Positions 49,556 to 57,732 are shown, counted from the first letter of the stretch. The stretch: DNA of 64,000 bases from Candidatus Poribacteria bacterium (GCA_965215265.1 OZ244048.1:2304001-2368000); one strand, 5' to 3'. The notes: a model not told the origin generated them from the letters alone. A program made the numbers and translations.

Positions 49556-49624
49556 GAACATAAGAGATTTTCAACGCAGTGCTATTGCCTCAGAAACTAG
49601 ACGATGCTGAAACAGACAAAAAAA

Positions 49625-50062
49625 ATGGCTAAGTACGTAGTTGCAACTCCAGACGAAATCCCGCCCGGTGAACGTAAAATTGTTGATATCGGGGGGCGTT
49701 CCATCGGCATTTTTAATATTGACGGCGAATACTTCGCCATCCGGAACAGCTGTCCACACCAAGGTGGCCCGCTGTGTAAGGGGCACGTCACCGGCTTCTT
49801 AGAATCCCCTGCACCCGGAACCTATAACTATATCCGCAAGGGCGAATTTCTACGCTGCCCGTGGCACAATTGGGAATTTGACATCAAAACCGGACAGTCG
49901 TGGTGGAACCCCACACAGCGACGCGTCCGAAAATACGATGTCCATGTAGAGAGCGGAGAACAGATTGAGGCTGCCACGTCCGAACCAGAAAAAGGACCTT
50001 ACCGGGCAGATACGTTTCCTGTCACCGTTGAACAGCAGTACCTCGTCATTGAAATTGGGTAA
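49625..50062 (+). CDS. Rieske (2Fe-2S) ferredoxin
   Basis: CPHQGGPL ... RCPWH.WEF. Confidence 0.92.
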   Translation: MAKYVVATPDEIPPGERKIVDIGGRSIGIFNIDGEYFAIRNSCPHQGGPLCKGHVTGFLESPAPGTYNYIRKGEFLRCPWHNWEFDIKTGQSWWNPTQRRVRKYDVHVESGEQIEAATSEPEKGPYRADTFPVTVEQQYLVIEIG

Positions 50063-50234
50063 TCTCAAGCGTTTTTTGTCGTATAATTCATGTTAATCGG
50101 AATCAGGACGAGAATCTTCCGAAGGTGACGAAAAAAAAGTGCGAAAATGGCTTGACTATTAATCCGAATTTGTGCTAAAATCGGTAATAACAGTGGAAAA
50201 CTTGCTTTCTCTCAATTTTTTTTGCAAAAAAAGG

Positions 50235-50305
50235 TTGACAATTTTGTAATTTTGTCGTATAATTCATGTTAAAAGGTTGACAACTTTGTAATTTTGTCGT
50301 ATAAT
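50235..50305 (+). promoter_or_regulatory. Two tandem consensus sigma70 promoters (42-bp duplication)
   Basis: TTGACA-N17-TATAAT at 50235-50263 and 50277-50305. Confidence 0.8.
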
Positions 50306-50351
50306 TCATGTTAATCGGAATCAGGACGAGAATCTTCCGAAGGTGACGACC

Positions 50352-50555
50352 ATGAAAATCACGCACGCAGAGCTGCACATCAACAGAGCGATCGGTTTCT
50401 CCGTGATACAACGCGGCGGCACCCCAAACGGGGCTGCGTCCTGCTTCGCTGCTAAGGCAGCGTCGCGATATGGTGATTACGGCTACTTCACATCTGTTCA
50501 CTATACTCCGATTACCCCCCCCCTTCAAATTTTCTATTTTGTAACAAATCGTTAA
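50352..50555 (+). CDS. Short hypothetical / leader ORF containing a C9 tract
   Basis: AAGGTGA RBS then ATG directly downstream of the tandem promoters; no recognisable domain. Confidence 0.35.
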   Translation: MKITHAELHINRAIGFSVIQRGGTPNGAASCFAAKAASRYGDYGYFTSVHYTPITPPLQIFYFVTNR

Positions 50556-50923
50556 ATATAGAACTTGACAGTGTCGGCACTTACTGTCGGCCTGTCTCTG
50601 TTGTGCCTGCACGTGCTCTCTCTCGTATGATGGGGCTCGCTGTGGGCTCTTTCTGTTGTCATGACTGTAATATGCGGACTCAATTTGATCTACTCAGAGA
50701 TCAAATTGGATATTGTCCGCTGCATGTTTTCCTGCCAACGCCACGGTTGCAACTGTTTCCATCGTTACCGTTTGATGAAAAATACGACAGCACCCGCACG
50801 TTGGCAGCTGTTTTTAACTGGAGTCGGCGTAATCTCTTTAACATATGCAGAGGATTATGCTGAAATATTCTGTCTGATTCTGAATTAGACAGTAGGCTAG
50901 TGACAAACTAAAAGGAGTTTACC

Positions 50924-51250
50924 ATGCTAACTTGCAGATTAGTCCGAATCGTATGCCATAAGCAAGAGGATTGGACCGGCGACGATTCTCCGTACATCAA
51001 GATTAACGGCGAGATCGTCTGGGGTCCGAAAGATATGGATGCCGGACAAACACGCGAAATTCACCGTGGTTACCAATTCCTTCACCGGGCTAAGGTAGTC
51101 CTATATGAGGACGATGCCTGGGATGAGGATGATTTCCTTGGTGAACACGTTCTTACACGAGCAGATGTAGGCACAGGGCTCCAGGAGTTGGCGTTCAGAG
51201 AAGATGACGCTAATTATTCAATATGGGTAGAGGTGCTCTCTAATCGGTAA
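50924..51250 (+). CDS. Small acidic hypothetical protein (C2-like beta sandwich)
   Basis: AAGGAG RBS; EDWTGDDSPYI, LYEDDAWDEDDFLG acidic loops. Confidence 0.65.
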   Translation: MLTCRLVRIVCHKQEDWTGDDSPYIKINGEIVWGPKDMDAGQTREIHRGYQFLHRAKVVLYEDDAWDEDDFLGEHVLTRADVGTGLQELAFREDDANYSIWVEVLSNR

Positions 51251-51415
51251 AAACGTCTCCATTCTCCGTTGCGGTGGGTGTGCCGAAGAGATTGGCAAAT
51301 GCCCACCGCAACTAACATCTCTGAAGTATACGTGGGCGGGGGGACACACTCTCTCGCCTCTACACAAAGTAGGGAACCCATGCCGTGGGTTCCCGCATCA
51401 AAAAGGAGGATTCCG

Positions 51416-53344
51416 ATGAAAAAAACAGTGATTTTAACAATCCTGACGTTACTGGGCGTGACAACGCTACTATTAGCCACTTCATCAGACAATCATCCGT
51501 CGCAATTGCGGATTACAGAGCCAGAGCCAATAACGCTTACAGAACCAGAGCCAATAACGATCCAGCGAATTCTCATAAACGGGTTGCGGCTTGATGGCCC
51601 GGGAATAGTGAAGTACCCTACTAATCAGCTGCCTGACACTGAAGATTTCGCGTGTTACGACGACAACACGTTCATCTTACTGGAGCAATACAAGCAAACC
51701 TGCGGTATCACCTGCGCAGAGATGCTTTTGCACTACTACGGCAAGAATGTCAGCGCGGATCAGATCTGGGATAAGGGCGGCATTTATAGCGTGGATACCG
51801 GTGCGTGGCCTAACGAGTTAGTGGCTGCCTTGAGCAGACTCGGAGTGGATGTAATCTTGGAGAAGAGGCCGGATAATTGGTGGAAAGCGCTTCACGGTTT
51901 ATTCTACCAAGTAGAGCAGAACCGCCCGCCGATCGTCTTGCTCCGTTACGGAAACGTGTACCACTATTCGGTCGTCGTCGGGTTTGATACCACTGGTGTA
52001 ACTGATAAAGTAAAAGGAATCCGCAATGTTATACTCGCCGATCCGCACAACGTTTACCGAATCATGCAGCTGAATACGTTCCTAAAAGTCTGGTCTTTAA
52101 AGACTTCCGAGATAGAACTACCGGGAGGCGGCTTTAAGGGGATGGTGAACAAAGGTTTGGTAATCGCTGTGAACACGAAGGATTATAGGTACGTGAGCAT
52201 CAATCCGAGGATGCAACCGCAGGAACATTTCCCCCCGAATTGGTCACAACTGAAAGCCGATATGATTATCGGAGAAAAGAAGGCCAACTGGACCCTTGGT
52301 TTTTTCTCTAGTGGAAAGCGTCACTGGGAGCGGACGTACAGATTCAAGCATCCCTTTAAGTCTTACAGCGTCTCGGCAATAGATCCGTTGCTATGGGAGG
52401 TACCATCCTCGTGGGGTACAAGTGGCTATATGCAAGGGCATGAGGCCAAGTGGGGGGATGACGGTGCACACAAGCTGAGAATCTGGGGTCGCATTGAGCA
52501 CGGGAAGGTAACACGTGGGCATTTGTGGGTCATGGTCCGCACCTACCGGAACCGTAAGAAGGAAACCTTCCCCGCAGGCATGGCACTCATCCCCGCAGGC
52601 ACCTTCCAGATGGGCAGCGAGGATGCTGATGCCCGGGATAACGAGCAGCCTGTGCATACGGTGCATGTGGACGCGTTCTATATGGATACGCACGAAGTGA
52701 CGAACGCCGAGTATAAAACTTTTGTGCTGGCGAACCCCGAGTGGCAGAAGGGGCGGATTCCGGATGCCTTCCACAGCGGTAAGTACCTAAACCGTTGGGA
52801 AGGTAATAACTATCCTTCGGGTAAGGCAGACCATCCTGTGGCGAATGTGTCGTGGTATGCGGCGATGGCGTATGCCGCGTGGGCGGGTAAGCGTCTTCCA
52901 ACGGAGGCGGAGTGGGAGAAAGCGGCACGGGGTGGGAAGTCAGGGTTAAAGTATCCGTGGGGAGACAGGATAACGGAGAAAGATGCGAACTACGATAGGA
53001 ATGTAGACGATACAACGGCTGTGGGGAGTTATGCGGCGAACGGATATGGGCTATATGATATGGCCGGGAACGTTGAAGAGTGGTGTCTTGACGCTTATGA
53101 TTCGGATTTCTATTCTGCGTCTCCGTCTAGTAATCCGCTGAGTGGTGTGTCTGGCAATACGCTCGCGAATCTGGATGAGATTGTAGATAACTATACAGGT
53201 GTTAAGTCTCCTCGCGTGTTGCGCGGCGGTAGCTGGGGCCATAATAATTCACATTACCTGCGCGCTGCGGATCGCGACTGGACTCCACCGACGACCACGA
53301 GCCTCGTCGACGGGTTCCGGTGTGCGAGGGCTGTCACGCCTTAA
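51416..53344 (+). CDS. Secreted C39-like cysteine peptidase fused to FGE-sulfatase (CLec-fold) domain; putative DGR target
   Basis: AAGGAGG RBS, signal peptide, Q...TCG..C..M...YYG / HYSVVVG / LADP; C-terminal RLPTEAEWEKAARG, DMAGNV.EW, RVLRGGSW...GFRCAR. Confidence 0.85.
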   Translation: MKKTVILTILTLLGVTTLLLATSSDNHPSQLRITEPEPITLTEPEPITIQRILINGLRLDGPGIVKYPTNQLPDTEDFACYDDNTFILLEQYKQTCGITCAEMLLHYYGKNVSADQIWDKGGIYSVDTGAWPNELVAALSRLGVDVILEKRPDNWWKALHGLFYQVEQNRPPIVLLRYGNVYHYSVVVGFDTTGVTDKVKGIRNVILADPHNVYRIMQLNTFLKVWSLKTSEIELPGGGFKGMVNKGLVIAVNTKDYRYVSINPRMQPQEHFPPNWSQLKADMIIGEKKANWTLGFFSSGKRHWERTYRFKHPFKSYSVSAIDPLLWEVPSSWGTSGYMQGHEAKWGDDGAHKLRIWGRIEHGKVTRGHLWVMVRTYRNRKKETFPAGMALIPAGTFQMGSEDADARDNEQPVHTVHVDAFYMDTHEVTNAEYKTFVLANPEWQKGRIPDAFHSGKYLNRWEGNNYPSGKADHPVANVSWYAAMAYAAWAGKRLPTEAEWEKAARGGKSGLKYPWGDRITEKDANYDRNVDDTTAVGSYAANGYGLYDMAGNVEEWCLDAYDSDFYSASPSSNPLSGVSGNTLANLDEIVDNYTGVKSPRVLRGGSWGHNNSHYLRAADRDWTPPTTTSLVDGFRCARAVTP

Positions 53345-53589
53345 ATCTTTACCCCTTTACCCCTTCCGAGCTGCACGCAGCTCGGGTCGATGCGATTTTG
53401 TGTTGATTTTGAGATGTGTTATGTGTTCCCTGTTGCGACAAGCGTGGGGAGATTGTCCGAACAAGCGCCGGTCCAACAGGGAAAATCAGATCTATTTTAT
53501 ATAAACAGTATGGACAATGCCGTGGATGCTCTTGAAGAGATTCCGGCATCCGTTAGCCGCGAGCGTTTCGCGGCATGTGGAGGTATCTA
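53345..53589 (+). repeat. ~245-bp intergenic unit repeated at 54442-54685 (first ~45 bp again at 55679)
   Basis: Near-identical sequence from aatctttacccc to ggaggtatcta. Confidence 0.9.
53366..53385. promoter_or_regulatory. GC-rich 8-bp/4-nt hairpin after the variable region (DGR-target hairpin candidate); copies at 54463-54482 and 55699-55718
   Basis: ccgagctg-cacg-cagctcgg, about 21 nt after each stop codon. Confidence 0.7.
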
Positions 53590-54441
53590 ATGTGTAATAA
53601 AAAAGTGTCAATGATGTTTGCAATATTGGTGTGTATGGTTTTGGGGTTAGGTGGTGTTGGCGAAGTGTCGGGACGACGGGCCCCCGAAGGTATGGTGCTC
53701 ATCCCCGCTGGCGACTTCCAGATGGGCAGCGACGATGCTGAAGCCGATGGTGACGAGCAGCCTGTGCGGACGGTGTATGTTGACGCGTTCTACATGGACA
53801 CGCACGAAGTGACGAACGCTGAATATAAAACTTTTGTGCTTGCGAATCCCGAGTGGCAAAAGACGCGGATTCCGGATGCCTTCCATGATGGTGGTTACCT
53901 ATGGGATTGGAGCGGTAATAACTATCCAGCGGGTAAGGGAGACCATCCTGTGAGGTATGTGTCGTGGTATGGTGCGATGGCATATTCCGCGTGGGCAGGT
54001 AAGCGTCTTCCAACGGAGGCGGAGTGGGAGAAAGCAGCACGCGGGGGGTTAGTTGGTAAGAAATACCCGTGGGGAGACACGCTAACGCCGAACGATGCGA
54101 ACTACGATACTGGCGGTACAACGGCTGTGGGGAGTTATGCGGCGAACGGGTATGGGCTATATGACATGGCCGGCAACGTCTGGGAGTGGTGTCTGGATGC
54201 GTATGATGCGGATTTCTATTTTCATTCGCCGTCTCGGAATCCGCTGAGTGACGTGAACACCATATCGAATCTGGATGAGATTGTAGATAACTATACAGGT
54301 GTTAAGTCGTCTCGCGTGTTGCGCGGCGGGAGTTGGTACGGTACTACTACGCGGACCCTGCGTGTCGCCTATCGCGCCGGGTCTCCCCCGACGTACTCGG
54401 GCAACATCGGGTTCCGGTGTGCGAGGGCTGTAACTCCTTAA
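53590..54441 (+). CDS. Secreted FGE-sulfatase (SUMF1/CLec-fold) domain protein; putative DGR target
   Basis: GGAGG RBS, signal/TM segment, canonical FGE motifs, variable C-terminus. Confidence 0.9.
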   Translation: MCNKKVSMMFAILVCMVLGLGGVGEVSGRRAPEGMVLIPAGDFQMGSDDAEADGDEQPVRTVYVDAFYMDTHEVTNAEYKTFVLANPEWQKTRIPDAFHDGGYLWDWSGNNYPAGKGDHPVRYVSWYGAMAYSAWAGKRLPTEAEWEKAARGGLVGKKYPWGDTLTPNDANYDTGGTTAVGSYAANGYGLYDMAGNVWEWCLDAYDADFYFHSPSRNPLSDVNTISNLDEIVDNYTGVKSSRVLRGGSWYGTTTRTLRVAYRAGSPPTYSGNIGFRCARAVTP

Positions 54442-54685
54442 ATCTTTACCCCTTTACTCCTTCCGATCTGCGTGCAGCTCGGGTCGATGCGATTTGTGTT
54501 GATTTTGAGATGTGTTATGTGTTCCCTGTTGCGACAAGCGTGGGGAGATTGTCCGAACAAGCGCCGGTCCAACAGGGAAAATCTTATCTATTTTATATAA
54601 ACAGTATAGACAATGCCGGGGATGCTCTTGAAGAGATTCCGGCATCCGTTAGCCGCGAGCGTTTCGCGGCATGTGGAGGTATCTA

Positions 54686-55678
54686 ATGTGTGATAAAAAA
54701 GAGTCAAAGGTTTGGAGGGCAGTAATGTCCCCTAAAAGTGTTTCAACAGTTTTGAGGTATATCCTGTCCGCTAAAAAAGTATCAAAGGTTTGGAGGGCTG
54801 TAATGACTAATAGAAACGTGTCAGTGATGTTAGCCATATTGGTGTGTATGGTTTTGAGTTTAGGGGGTGTTGGCGAAGTGTCGGAACAATCGGCACCCGA
54901 AGGCATGGTGCTGATTCCTGCCGGTGAATTCCAGATGGGCAGCAACGATGCCGAGGCCGATGTTGACGAGCAGCCTGTGCATACGGTGCATGTGGACGCG
55001 TTCTACATGGATACGCACGAGGTGACGAACGCCGAGTATAAAACTTTTGTGCTTGCGAATCCCGAGTGGCAGGAGGGGCGGGTTCCGGATGCCCTCCATG
55101 ATGGTTCCTACCTAAGGCATTGGGAAGGTAATAACTATCCAGTGGGTAAAGGGGACCATCCTGTGAGGTATGTGTCGTGGTATGGTGCGATGGCTTATGC
55201 TGCGTGGGCAGGGAAGCGTCTTCCAACGGAGGCGGAGTGGGAGAAAGCAGCACGTGGTGGGTTAGTTGGTAAGAAATACCCGTGGGGTGACACGATAACG
55301 TGGGGTGACACGATAACGGCGAACTACAATGATAATGTAGGCGGTACAACGGCTGTGGGGAGTTATGCTGCGAACGGATATGGGCTATATGATATGGCCG
55401 GCAACGTTTACGAGTGGTGTCTGGACGAGTATAATGCGGCATTTTATTCTGCGTCTCCGTCTAGTAATCCGCTGAGTGGAGTGTCTGGTAGTACGCTCGC
55501 GAATCTGGATGAGATTGTAGATGACTACACAAATGTTATCTCATCTCGCGTGTTGCGCGGCAGTGGCTGGGGCGATAAGGTTGCACGGGACCTGCGCGCC
55601 GCTGATCGCGGCTGGAATAGGCCGACGTCCACGGACCTCTACACCGGGTTCCGGTGTGCGAGGGATGTCACGCCTTAA
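54686..55678 (+). CDS. Secreted FGE-sulfatase (SUMF1/CLec-fold) domain protein; putative DGR target
   Basis: Paralog of the previous gene; alternative starts at 54725 and 54803. Confidence 0.9.
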   Translation: MCDKKESKVWRAVMSPKSVSTVLRYILSAKKVSKVWRAVMTNRNVSVMLAILVCMVLSLGGVGEVSEQSAPEGMVLIPAGEFQMGSNDAEADVDEQPVHTVHVDAFYMDTHEVTNAEYKTFVLANPEWQEGRVPDALHDGSYLRHWEGNNYPVGKGDHPVRYVSWYGAMAYAAWAGKRLPTEAEWEKAARGGLVGKKYPWGDTITWGDTITANYNDNVGGTTAVGSYAANGYGLYDMAGNVYEWCLDEYNAAFYSASPSSNPLSGVSGSTLANLDEIVDDYTNVISSRVLRGSGWGDKVARDLRAADRGWNRPTSTDLYTGFRCARDVTP

Positions 55679-55859
55679 ATCTTTACCCTTTACCCCTTCC
55701 GAGCTGCGTGCAGCTCGGGGCGCTGCGATTTTTAACAGTTAGTAAAAAAGTAGACTGTAAATCCATCCTTATGCCTCCTTTTATTTTTCTTATTTATAGG
55801 ATAGCATAAGGATGGAGTCCCTCACACGCAAAATCAACTCATTTCTTAGGAGAGTTTAC

Positions 55860-56723
55860 ATGAGATACATCTATAACCCCTTCCTAAAAAGAATCCCGTA
55901 CTTCACAATTGCGATAGGCTTATTGGCATCCATCTTCTGCTTTTGCACAGGGTGCATGAACCTCAGCACCGTCGGGCGAGCTGGGAATTTACTCATTGAA
56001 GAATTAAGCGATGTAAACATCTTCACTGACGCAGAAGAGCGCCAATTGGGGCAGGCGTTCGTCGCACAGCATGAACAGAAAATTACGCTTTACACAGACC
56101 CTGTTGTCACGGACTATATTAACACGCTAGGACAGTCGCTCGTGCGTTACAGCAAACGCAGCAATATCCAGTATACGTTTAAAGTCGTAGACACGAAAGG
56201 TGTGAATGCCTATGCGGTGCCGGGCGGCTTCATTTACGTCCACCTCGATCTTATCCGGGCGGCGAAAACGGAATCGGAGTTAGCTGCAGTGATCGGTCAT
56301 GAAATCGGGCATATTGTCGGAAGGCATTCCATGAAACGCCTCACCCAAGTCTACGGTATTGAAATCTTAAAACAGGTAATTTTAGATGAGGACTCAGGCC
56401 ATGTCAAAAAACTAATCACGGAAATCTTCGCGGCAGGACTGCTCTTTCGATACAGTCGTGATCATGAACGGGAATCTGATGCTTACGGAGTCCAGAATGT
56501 TTACGATGCCTGCATAGCTCCCGAAGGGGCCGTGGCGTTCTTTGAAACCTTACGTGCGATGCGTGGAAGGGAACCCTCTGCACTAGAAAAGTTTCTATCG
56601 ACACACCCAGTGCCGCATGAACGCGTCAGGAATGTGCGTAACCAGATTGCCGGATTGCCGCCGAAATCCGGGTTGCGGACCGATTCCTCGCGTTTCCGTC
56701 AAATCAAAACGCGCATTCGATGA
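55860..56723 (+). CDS. M48 family metallopeptidase (probable lipoprotein)
   Basis: VNAYAVPGG, HEIGH, YSR..E.E.D, FLSTHP. Confidence 0.9.
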   Translation: MRYIYNPFLKRIPYFTIAIGLLASIFCFCTGCMNLSTVGRAGNLLIEELSDVNIFTDAEERQLGQAFVAQHEQKITLYTDPVVTDYINTLGQSLVRYSKRSNIQYTFKVVDTKGVNAYAVPGGFIYVHLDLIRAAKTESELAAVIGHEIGHIVGRHSMKRLTQVYGIEILKQVILDEDSGHVKKLITEIFAAGLLFRYSRDHERESDAYGVQNVYDACIAPEGAVAFFETLRAMRGREPSALEKFLSTHPVPHERVRNVRNQIAGLPPKSGLRTDSSRFRQIKTRIR

Positions 56724-56889: not shown

Positions 56890-57732
56890 GTGAAAACAGA
56901 CCTAAAGAAATTAGCACCTTATTCTCCCATTATTGCAATAATCGGAGTCATCATCGCTATCTCCGTGGGCTTCTTTGGATTGGATTATACGAAGGTTGGC
57001 TCGCTTGTTTCTAAGCGGCCAGCCGGTCCGCCTGAACGAGATACTTTTCCGCCTGAACGAGATACTTTTTCTTGGAACTTGGAGAGTAGAAGGGCCGTTG
57101 AAAGCGAGGGAGGCACAGTTCAGGCTCCCGGCACCGACAATTTTGTCAAAGGAGAAAGCGCATGTGGCACCGGTTTTGTCAGTAAAGAAAAAAGTGATGT
57201 CATCATAATTCCGTTGAAGAGCGAATGGAAGGACCCGCTCACCAATATAACTGCCGGCACCGTTGAATTGTGCGTAACCCCCTTACAGGATATCAACAAA
57301 AGAGAAGACAACCTTTCTTTTTTCAGAGCCCCACCGATTGACGGCACGTTGGTCTCTTTAAAGATTGTTAGTATTGAACGAAAAACGCCAGAACTGCGTC
57401 TGCGAGTTAAGAAAAACAGTGGTGAAAAGGGGAGCGTGAAGAGCACATCCATCCTTGATTGGAAATCCGGGGAACATCACCACATCATCGGAACATGGGG
57501 TGCAGCAGGACTGCATCTATACATAGATGGTGAGCACGTAGCAGGGAGGACTGACTTTAAAGGCGGGCCCGAAAATCTTCATGGAGAATTTGTGATTAAC
57601 AATACCTGGCACGAGGATGAACCTTTTAAATCCCCAACGCATTGCATCGTCAGCAACGTTCGCATTTCTAACTATCAGTGGGGCGCAGCAGAAGTGAAAG
57701 CACGTTTTGAGGAACTCCATCCGACCGAATAA
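56890..57732 (+). CDS. Membrane-anchored LamG-like domain protein
   Basis: N-terminal TM helix; GTVE, W..GEHHHI..TW...LYIDG, VRIS. Confidence 0.7.
   Translation: MKTDLKKLAPYSPIIAIIGVIIAISVGFFGLDYTKVGSLVSKRPAGPPERDTFPPERDTFSWNLESRRAVESEGGTVQAPGTDNFVKGESACGTGFVSKEKSDVIIIPLKSEWKDPLTNITAGTVELCVTPLQDINKREDNLSFFRAPPIDGTLVSLKIVSIERKTPELRLRVKKNSGEKGSVKSTSILDWKSGEHHHIIGTWGAAGLHLYIDGEHVAGRTDFKGGPENLHGEFVINNTWHEDEPFKSPTHCIVSNVRISNYQWGAAEVKARFEELHPTE

Follow-up and report, generated by a model that had tools for sequence, protein, structure and literature searches.

The 64,000-nt window analysed here, one strand of the Candidatus Poribacteria bacterium genome (GCA_965215265.1, OZ244048.1:2304001-2368000), contains a tandem array of three genes, g1, g2 and g3. 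They encode proteins of the formylglycine-generating enzyme (FGE)-sulfatase family, and they are very probably remote (trans) targets of the single diversity-generating retroelement (DGR) of this genome. The genome is one contig of 4,833,177 bases and is 95% complete by marker genes. A preliminary description of the window had proposed that the three genes are targets of a reverse transcriptase (RT) and a template elsewhere. A single cassette of avd, RT and template was found, 934-936 kb away from the window genes. The features of DGR targets observed in the array are adenine-specific mismatches to the template, an RT with an accessory protein in the genome, a difference between the initiation of mutagenic homing (IMH) sequence of the targets and its counterpart IMH* in the template, a downstream stem (imperfect in g2), and a C-type lectin (CLec) scaffold.

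The whole cassette occupies positions 1,416,737-1,421,150 of the genome and is composed, in this order, of two target genes, avd, RT and the template. The two targets, both of the FGE type, are at 1,416,737-1,418,032 and 1,418,066-1,419,196, and the avd-RT-template part is at 1,419,462-1,421,150. The 118-aa Avd protein, encoded in front of the RT, matches PF22296 (bAvd) with 83 bits (cut-off, 40 bits) and NF033474, the NCBIfam equivalog for DGR Avd, with 120 bits (cut-off, 80 bits). The RT gene (1,419,880-1,420,944) encodes a 354-aa protein with the RVT_1 domain. It carries the motifs IGNLTSQ and YVDD, which we take to be DGR signatures. The template repeat, non-coding and adenine-rich, starts at 1,421,033, 89 nt downstream of the RT. 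The RVT_1 profile search of the 4.83-Mb genome gave exactly one match. The tblastn search of the genome found neither a second RT nor a second avd, and there is no second adenine-rich copy of the template in the genome. The closest relatives of the RT are from a metagenome-assembled genome titled Poribacteria (83% identity), and many cyanobacterial loci show 55-60% identity. Other types of RT were rejected: the score for group II intron RTs was 143.6 against the NCBIfam cut-off of 300, that for retron RTs (St85) was 53 against 235, and those for Drt2, 3a, 3b, 4 and 5 were all far under their NCBIfam cut-offs.

The template is composed largely of AAC and AAT codons in the frame of the targets, which places adenines at codon positions 1 and 2. 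The mismatches between the template and the variable regions of the window genes (VR1 to VR3) are concentrated at these adenines. In VR1 (53213..53329, plus strand, as are all window features described here), 17 of the 34 template adenines are changed, compared with 4 of the 78 other bases (p 1.2e-07), and there is one 3-nt insertion. VR2 (54313..54426) has changes at 20/32 adenines and 5/77 other bases (p 1.7e-09), with a 3-nt insertion and a 3-nt deletion. VR3 (55547..55663) has changes at 20/34 adenines and only 2/78 other bases (p 3.6e-11), with one 3-nt insertion. The same excess of adenine mismatches is observed in every one of the 33 variable-region-like copies in the genome (Fisher p 2e-14 to 1.6e-4). 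When the analysis is restricted to the 18 copies free of indels, the positional entropy is 1.64 bits at adenines and 0.24 bits elsewhere (Mann-Whitney p 4e-18), and adenine is retained in 240 of the 612 cells. The search of the genome for a non-coding template next to an RT and avd, suggested in the preliminary description, thus led to a sequence which differs from the targets chiefly at A. Of 31 aligned codons, the template reconstructed there from the window alone has 28 in common with the real one. Its three misses are single bases that are A in the real template, and it contains one extra AAT codon.

The codon-level signature is the reverse of synonymous drift, as had been noted from the window. 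Upstream of the variable stretch, 214 aligned codons contain 40, 38 and 72 variable sites at codon positions 1, 2 and 3, respectively. Inside the stretch, 26 codons contain 15, 14 and 8. The reversal of the codon-position bias (29:8 vs 78:72) is significant (one-sided Fisher p=0.0027). There are 11 codons where positions 1 and 2 vary and a third C or T is fixed; in another two, the fixed third base is G. The codon alignment contains every one of the ten triplets quoted earlier as examples (10/10).

The conserved 5' block begins at 53213, 54313 and 55547. The GC-rich 18-nt tail GGGTTCCGGTGTGCGAGG, which forms the IMH core, is located at 53312-53329, 54409-54426 and 55646-55663, and the stop codons end at 53344, 54441 and 55678. 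The coordinates and motifs given previously for the three genes proved to be exact. Nearly all targets end in GCGAGGGC, g3 in GCGAGGGA, and the template in GCGAAGAC. Within these ends, GAGGGC in the targets (GAGGGA in g3) corresponds to GAAGAC in the template. This difference is the asymmetry between IMH and IMH*, which in the BPP-1 model determines the direction of transfer.

A common 3' element follows the terminal variable regions of the family, consisting of the stop codon, CTTTACC-type repeats and a GC stem. In g1, the element (53342..53385) includes two CTTTACC-type repeats and ends with a hairpin at 53366-53385, which has a perfect 8-bp GC stem and a 4-nt loop (folded as DNA, as were all hairpins here; -9.6 kcal/mol, z -3.15 against shuffled sequence). 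In g3, the stop codon and CTTTACC repeats (element 55676..55718) precede an equally perfect stem (8 bp, 4-nt loop) at 55699-55718 (-9.0 kcal/mol). The hairpin after g2 (54463..54482) has 7/8 pairs and is no better than shuffled sequences (-4.7 kcal/mol, z -0.66). Thus, the claim of an 8-bp stem with a 4-nt loop after each gene was right for g1 and g3, and has to be corrected for g2. A perfect stem of 7-10 bp with a 4-nt loop lies 28-37 nt downstream of 14 of the 41 IMH-like sites in the genome, so the tail and hairpin, whose count in other FGE genes had been suggested as a check, are also present outside the window. There are two versions of the stem, ...GAGCTG/CAGCTC... at ten sites and ...GATCTG/CAGATC... 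at four, and they differ by a compensatory change from G-C to T-A. The structure of the stem therefore appears to be selected. In BPP-1, it was shown experimentally that the structure of the stem, and not its sequence, matters (PMC3240598). The hairpin of g2 is a hybrid with one arm from each version, which breaks one pair. Isolated relics of ~50 nt of the IMH and the 3' element, with no FGE frame upstream, are seen at 2998823-2998872 and 4393851-4393900 of the genome.

The three genes are co-oriented, and all match the FGE-sulfatase family of Pfam (E 1e-61 to 1e-64). The first gene, g1 (51416..53344), encodes 642 aa from the ATG at 51416, which is preceded by AGGAGG, in a frame open from 51269; the exact 642-aa product is on record. 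In its protein, a hydrophobic N-terminus is followed by a Peptidase_C39-like region and, at the C-terminus, an FGE-sulfatase/CLec domain (PF03781, E 1.2e-63; Peptidase_C39_2, E 7e-09). The Peptidase_C39-like region (51683..52048, residues 139-260 of the 691-aa open frame) matches PF13529 with 36.8 bits and PF03412 with 29.9 bits (cut-offs, 24 and 22 bits). The second gene, g2 (53590..54441), encodes 283 aa from the ATG at 53590, and this product is also on record exactly. For g3 (54803..55678), the frame is open from 54671, and translation probably starts at the ATG at 54803, which follows GGAGG. This start is inferred because there is no product on record for any of the five starts tried (54671, 54686, 54725, 54803 and 54827). 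The proteins of g2 and g3 each have a hydrophobic N-terminus and one FGE-sulfatase/CLec domain (E 4e-61 and 2e-63). The FGE domains 5' of the variable region show 84.6-86.9% pairwise identity among the three genes. The protein of g2 matches FGE structures in PDB at 5e-39, and the structure of Treponema TvpA, 2y3c, at 5e-10. By sequence, the fold of the window proteins is considered to be settled. The three proteins are putatively exported, judging from their hydrophobic N-termini.

In the BPP-1 model, the RT-Avd complex would copy the template RNA and insert random bases opposite its adenines, and the cDNA would replace the ~100-nt variable region of the target. The replacement would be bounded on the 3' side by the GC-rich IMH tail together with the hairpin ~36 nt beyond it, and on the 5' side by homology. 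The products would be exported proteins of the C-type lectin fold, whose ligand-binding face is recoded at ~13 codons. The adenine pattern between template and targets, the cassette, the conserved 3' element and, at other loci, the rewriting of terminal variable regions after duplication are directly observed, whereas the enzymology, protein export and ligand binding in this scheme are presumed.

Two other explanations were considered. One of them dispenses with a retroelement and ascribes the pattern to ordinary paralog divergence, with diversifying selection or gene conversion. The paralogs, at 85-87% identity, are old enough for much change, and selection on a binding surface can enrich non-synonymous changes. 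However, the variable positions coincide, in 33 copies, with the adenines of a non-coding repeat beside an RT and avd, and adenine-specific novelty cannot come from gene conversion. By the adenine-mismatch and entropy tests, this explanation is close to refuted, and we regard it as very improbable. The other, that g1 to g3 are working FGEs which mature sulfatases, has even less to recommend it in spite of the strong FGE-sulfatase matches in Pfam and the matches to FGE in PDB. The Cys-x4-Cys stretch of the solved FGEs (6muj and 2q17) faces a gap and cysteine-free variable residues of g2, and no equivalog cut-off of NCBIfam is reached. The cysteine pair is presumably the catalytic, active-site pair of the enzyme. 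The window proteins share the fold and the Pfam family of SUMF1/FGE, but have the variable region in place of the stretch with the cysteine pair. In genomes of this kind, the number of FGE-sulfatase domains should not be taken as evidence of sulfatase maturation.

The array belongs to a large family. A genome search with VR1 gave 41 matches, and the family comprises 33 variable regions in 26 open frames (genes or remnants), which lie up to megabases from the template. Among the 26 frames, 23 are at least 201 aa long and three are broken; six proteins have two or three variable regions. In the 12 larger variable proteins scanned, Dockerin_1 is observed in seven, Cohesin in one and a caspase-like domain (Peptidase_C14) in one, and six contain three FGE domains. 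The loci with Dockerin_1, Cohesin or Peptidase_C14 partners are L111, L114, L117-L120, L122 and L116. The dockerin and cohesin partners suggest a possible scaffold-mounted display of the variable domains. For the comparison of target orientation with replication direction, the cumulative GC skew of the genome proved too noisy to give a usable origin or terminus. A 35-nt element in 22 copies (at genome positions 1421283, 1422723, 1424195 and 19 other sites) heads ~1.4-kb units, which immediately follow the template and many of the variable-region genes; there are none in the window. At least the unit adjoining the template encodes a YhgA-like Transposase_31 protein.

Among the 30 related genomes compared, the RT is observed only in G004 (83% identity), which belongs to a different genus of the same family. 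G004 has its own template and 26 copies of it, in which the adenine pattern is the same. The sole genome of the same genus among them has neither the RT nor variable-region copies. In another relative, the sequence G006:C1:2593537-2593652 is 80% identical to template positions 3-118, including the template-specific tail. There is no RT match at E 1e-20 in that genome, and the sequence may be an orphan template.

Rewriting at remote sites is recent elsewhere in the genome. Three paralogs of ~930 aa, L115, L120 and L122 (1562231-1565029, 4140853-4143630 and 4441382-4444186), have three FGE domains each. They show 94-100% identity in most 100-nt windows, including the internal variable region, with a few dips to 81-88%, whereas the terminal variable region with the hairpin element is only 62-71% identical. 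This contrast indicates that remote terminal targets were rewritten after recent duplication, and that the hairpin-less internal ones were not. The copies that fit the template best, with 0 and 1 non-adenine changes, are at 4795103-4795235 and 4150241-4150365. In both, the frame is broken by indels in AAC tracts (a 2-nt insertion and a 5-nt deletion). Either slippage during rewriting or assembly error could have caused these breaks.

Six non-adenine positions divide the family into three groups: class I, which agrees with the template of today, class II, and copies of mixed type. Several class II copies differ from the class II consensus by only 0-2 non-adenine changes. The distribution of the classes over the tree of the upstream domains is scattered (8 changes, against a mean of 9-10 after shuffling), and the classes therefore reflect what was written in, and not the ancestry of genes. 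This bears out an earlier remark that a few third-position differences imply drift or more than one template. In VR2, all five non-adenine changes are class II markers (5/6 markers present). There is no class II template in the genome. In the template of a relative (L022), the class II state is partly present, which would fit a single template changing over time. This template was ruled out as the source of the extra codon described below, as it has the same length as the template of this genome.

It is possible, though slightly doubtful, that g1 and g3 are still being rewritten, and for g2 it is rather unlikely. Several observations weigh against present activity. One extra AAY-type codon is present in all three window regions (3/3) and in none of the 30 other copies (Fisher p 1.8e-4), and it would not survive rewriting of the full length from the present template. 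The stretch around it differs among g1 to g3 at adenine-derived positions, and the codon could come either from a former template with a third AAT or from rare slipped cDNAs selected at the locus. There are four non-adenine changes in g1, of which the two in the CTGCGC block (GCT GCG) are not found together in any other tabulated copy (0/29). The five class II markers of g2 belong to a template version not present in the genome, and the g2 hairpin is weakened. Read evidence was taken from runs X1, X5, X6 and X7. In X5 and X6, each of the three regions is spanned by contigs that match the reference exactly, with a depth like that of the unique flanks: 332, 343 and 315 against 320, 358 and 302 in X5, and 40, 47 and 43 against 43-58 in X6. 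Thus, the read-level hypervariation expected at these codons in the preliminary description was not seen in the contigs of X5 and X6, which is a weak test, as contigs drop rare variants and the runs may be the source of the assembly. Diversification is supported indirectly by the ~930-aa paralogs at other loci of this genome, described above. Many contigs in the read comparison derive from ~30 paralogs, which confounds the table of other letters. In X7, none of 199 raw reads (0/199) reached 95% likeness; for X1, only eight pieces were listed and no variable region was cleanly covered. The proteins of g1 and g2 are singletons in the 90% clusters of a collection of 15 billion proteins. For g1, only matches of 33-35% were found, in 6 of the 30 relatives, and no ortholog was found in the metagenome scan.

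These points are the basis of a finely balanced alternative, which opposes only the present activity of the array: g1 to g3 would be fossil targets, written by an earlier or lost template (one with a third AAT, and the class II version for g2), with alleles now fixed. The absence of the extra codon from the template, the unmatched pair of changes in g1, the class II markers and mismatched hairpin of g2, and the reference alleles at full depth in two runs all agree with it. Remnant targets without an active element are known in cyanobacteria (PMC7517822). On the other side, the reading frames and the IMH of all three genes and the hairpins of g1 and g3 are intact, and g3 has so few non-adenine changes. 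The 5' crossover may also fall downstream of the extra codon, and in that case rewriting could still affect the 3' two-thirds of the region. In a survey of 372 DGRs, PMC5758913 reports length differences by AAC repeats (7%) and non-adenine changes (23%), which are ascribed to non-canonical mutagenesis such as RT slippage. It is improbable that a second template outside the assembly, on a co-existing strain, an unassembled replicon or a population allele, now serves the array. Several class II copies are as clean against the class II consensus as class I copies are against the present template, and the scatter of the marker classes on the domain tree also speaks for it. However, the single, nearly complete contig contains no second RT, avd or adenine-rich template copy, and the part-class II template of the relative fits one template changing over time equally well.

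The system works as known DGRs do; it is distinct in the size of its single-template family, its phylum, its dockerin and cohesin partners and its internal controls. A close parallel is the Treponema denticola DGR with TvpA, which is also a cellular DGR with FGE-type variable proteins of the CLec fold and several remote trans targets of one template. No DGR in the 2017 survey had more non-adjacent targets than the seven of Treponema (PMC5758913). The present case differs in its 33 copies in 26 genes or remnants, in proteins with two or three variable domains, and in its phylum. Cyanobacterial DGRs share the variable region at the 3' end of CLec genes and provide the nearest RTs outside the family (55-60%). 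Remote targets, remnant targets and nearby transposase genes are further likenesses, and 121 diversified genes were counted over 21 genomes (PMC7517822). The present single family is far larger, and its partners are dockerin, cohesin, caspase-like and C39-like domains, not kinases.

Thiohalocapsa PB-PSB1 resembles the present genome in having many targets per genome, trans diversification and tandem variable CLec domains, and differences in activity among individual variable regions are a further likeness; it has nine DGR loci of four classes with 15 target genes (PMC10907252). Here, there is one RT and one template, and the window shows no NACHT or MoxR context. Adenine-specific differences, IMH against IMH*, Avd with RT, and a downstream 7-10-bp GC stem with a 4-nt loop are shared with BPP-1 (Mtd). 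In contrast to BPP-1, the targets here are in trans at 0.94 Mb and not in cis, and the template is downstream of the RT. The loops are CACG or CGTG, compared with the phage consensus GRNA, and the hairpin follows the 18-nt IMH core by ~36 nt, compared with 4-34 bp between hairpin and variable-region end in phage, where the reference points may differ (PMC3240598). A search of the accessible literature for DGRs together with Poribacteria, sponge symbionts or dockerin found no relevant paper.

With a single contig, a single template and 33 copies that lie as far as megabases away, this is a large and clean case of a trans-acting DGR. It includes internal controls, namely terminal and internal variable regions, compensatory versions of the hairpin, and marker classes which separate template versions. 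Target choice, 5' crossover and indel formation are therefore testable on natural data. A more tentative and rather unlikely proposal is that one RT/template lineage writes more than 20 dispersed targets, many of them fused with dockerin or cohesin, which could provide combinatorial, scaffold-displayed hypervariable binders of the lectin fold. The targets would keep a datable record of their last rewriting (class I/II markers and the extra codon of the window), because the template itself changed over time. If so, it would be the largest single-template family of DGR targets that we found described, although supplements of surveys may give per-genome maxima.

The spacers of the array are more similar than its genes. 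The full spacers between g1 and g2 (53345-53574) and between g2 and g3 (54442-54670) are identical at 221 of 229 positions, whereas identity among the FGE domains on either side is just 85-87%. The conserved leader that lies between g1 and g2 (53386..53589) recurs between g2 and g3 and 5' of another variable-protein gene, at genome positions 762287-763456, where the upstream match is 84% over 171 nt. The last ~37 nt of the leader are also present upstream of seven further variable-protein genes. The spacer contains a 10-bp inverted repeat, TTCCCTGTTG ... CAACAGGGAA. Rfam gave no match at E up to 1 in window positions 50000-56000, including the spacer leader.

The neighbours of the array are a Rieske protein upstream (49604-50062), and an M48 peptidase (55812-56723) and a Laminin_G_3 (concanavalin-like lectin) protein (56890-57732) downstream; they have no evident link to the array. 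The leader of g3 contains a 39-nt tandem repeat in 2.9 copies (54694..54805), with GGAGG and then ATG in every unit. Units similar to this repeat precede six other variable-protein genes.

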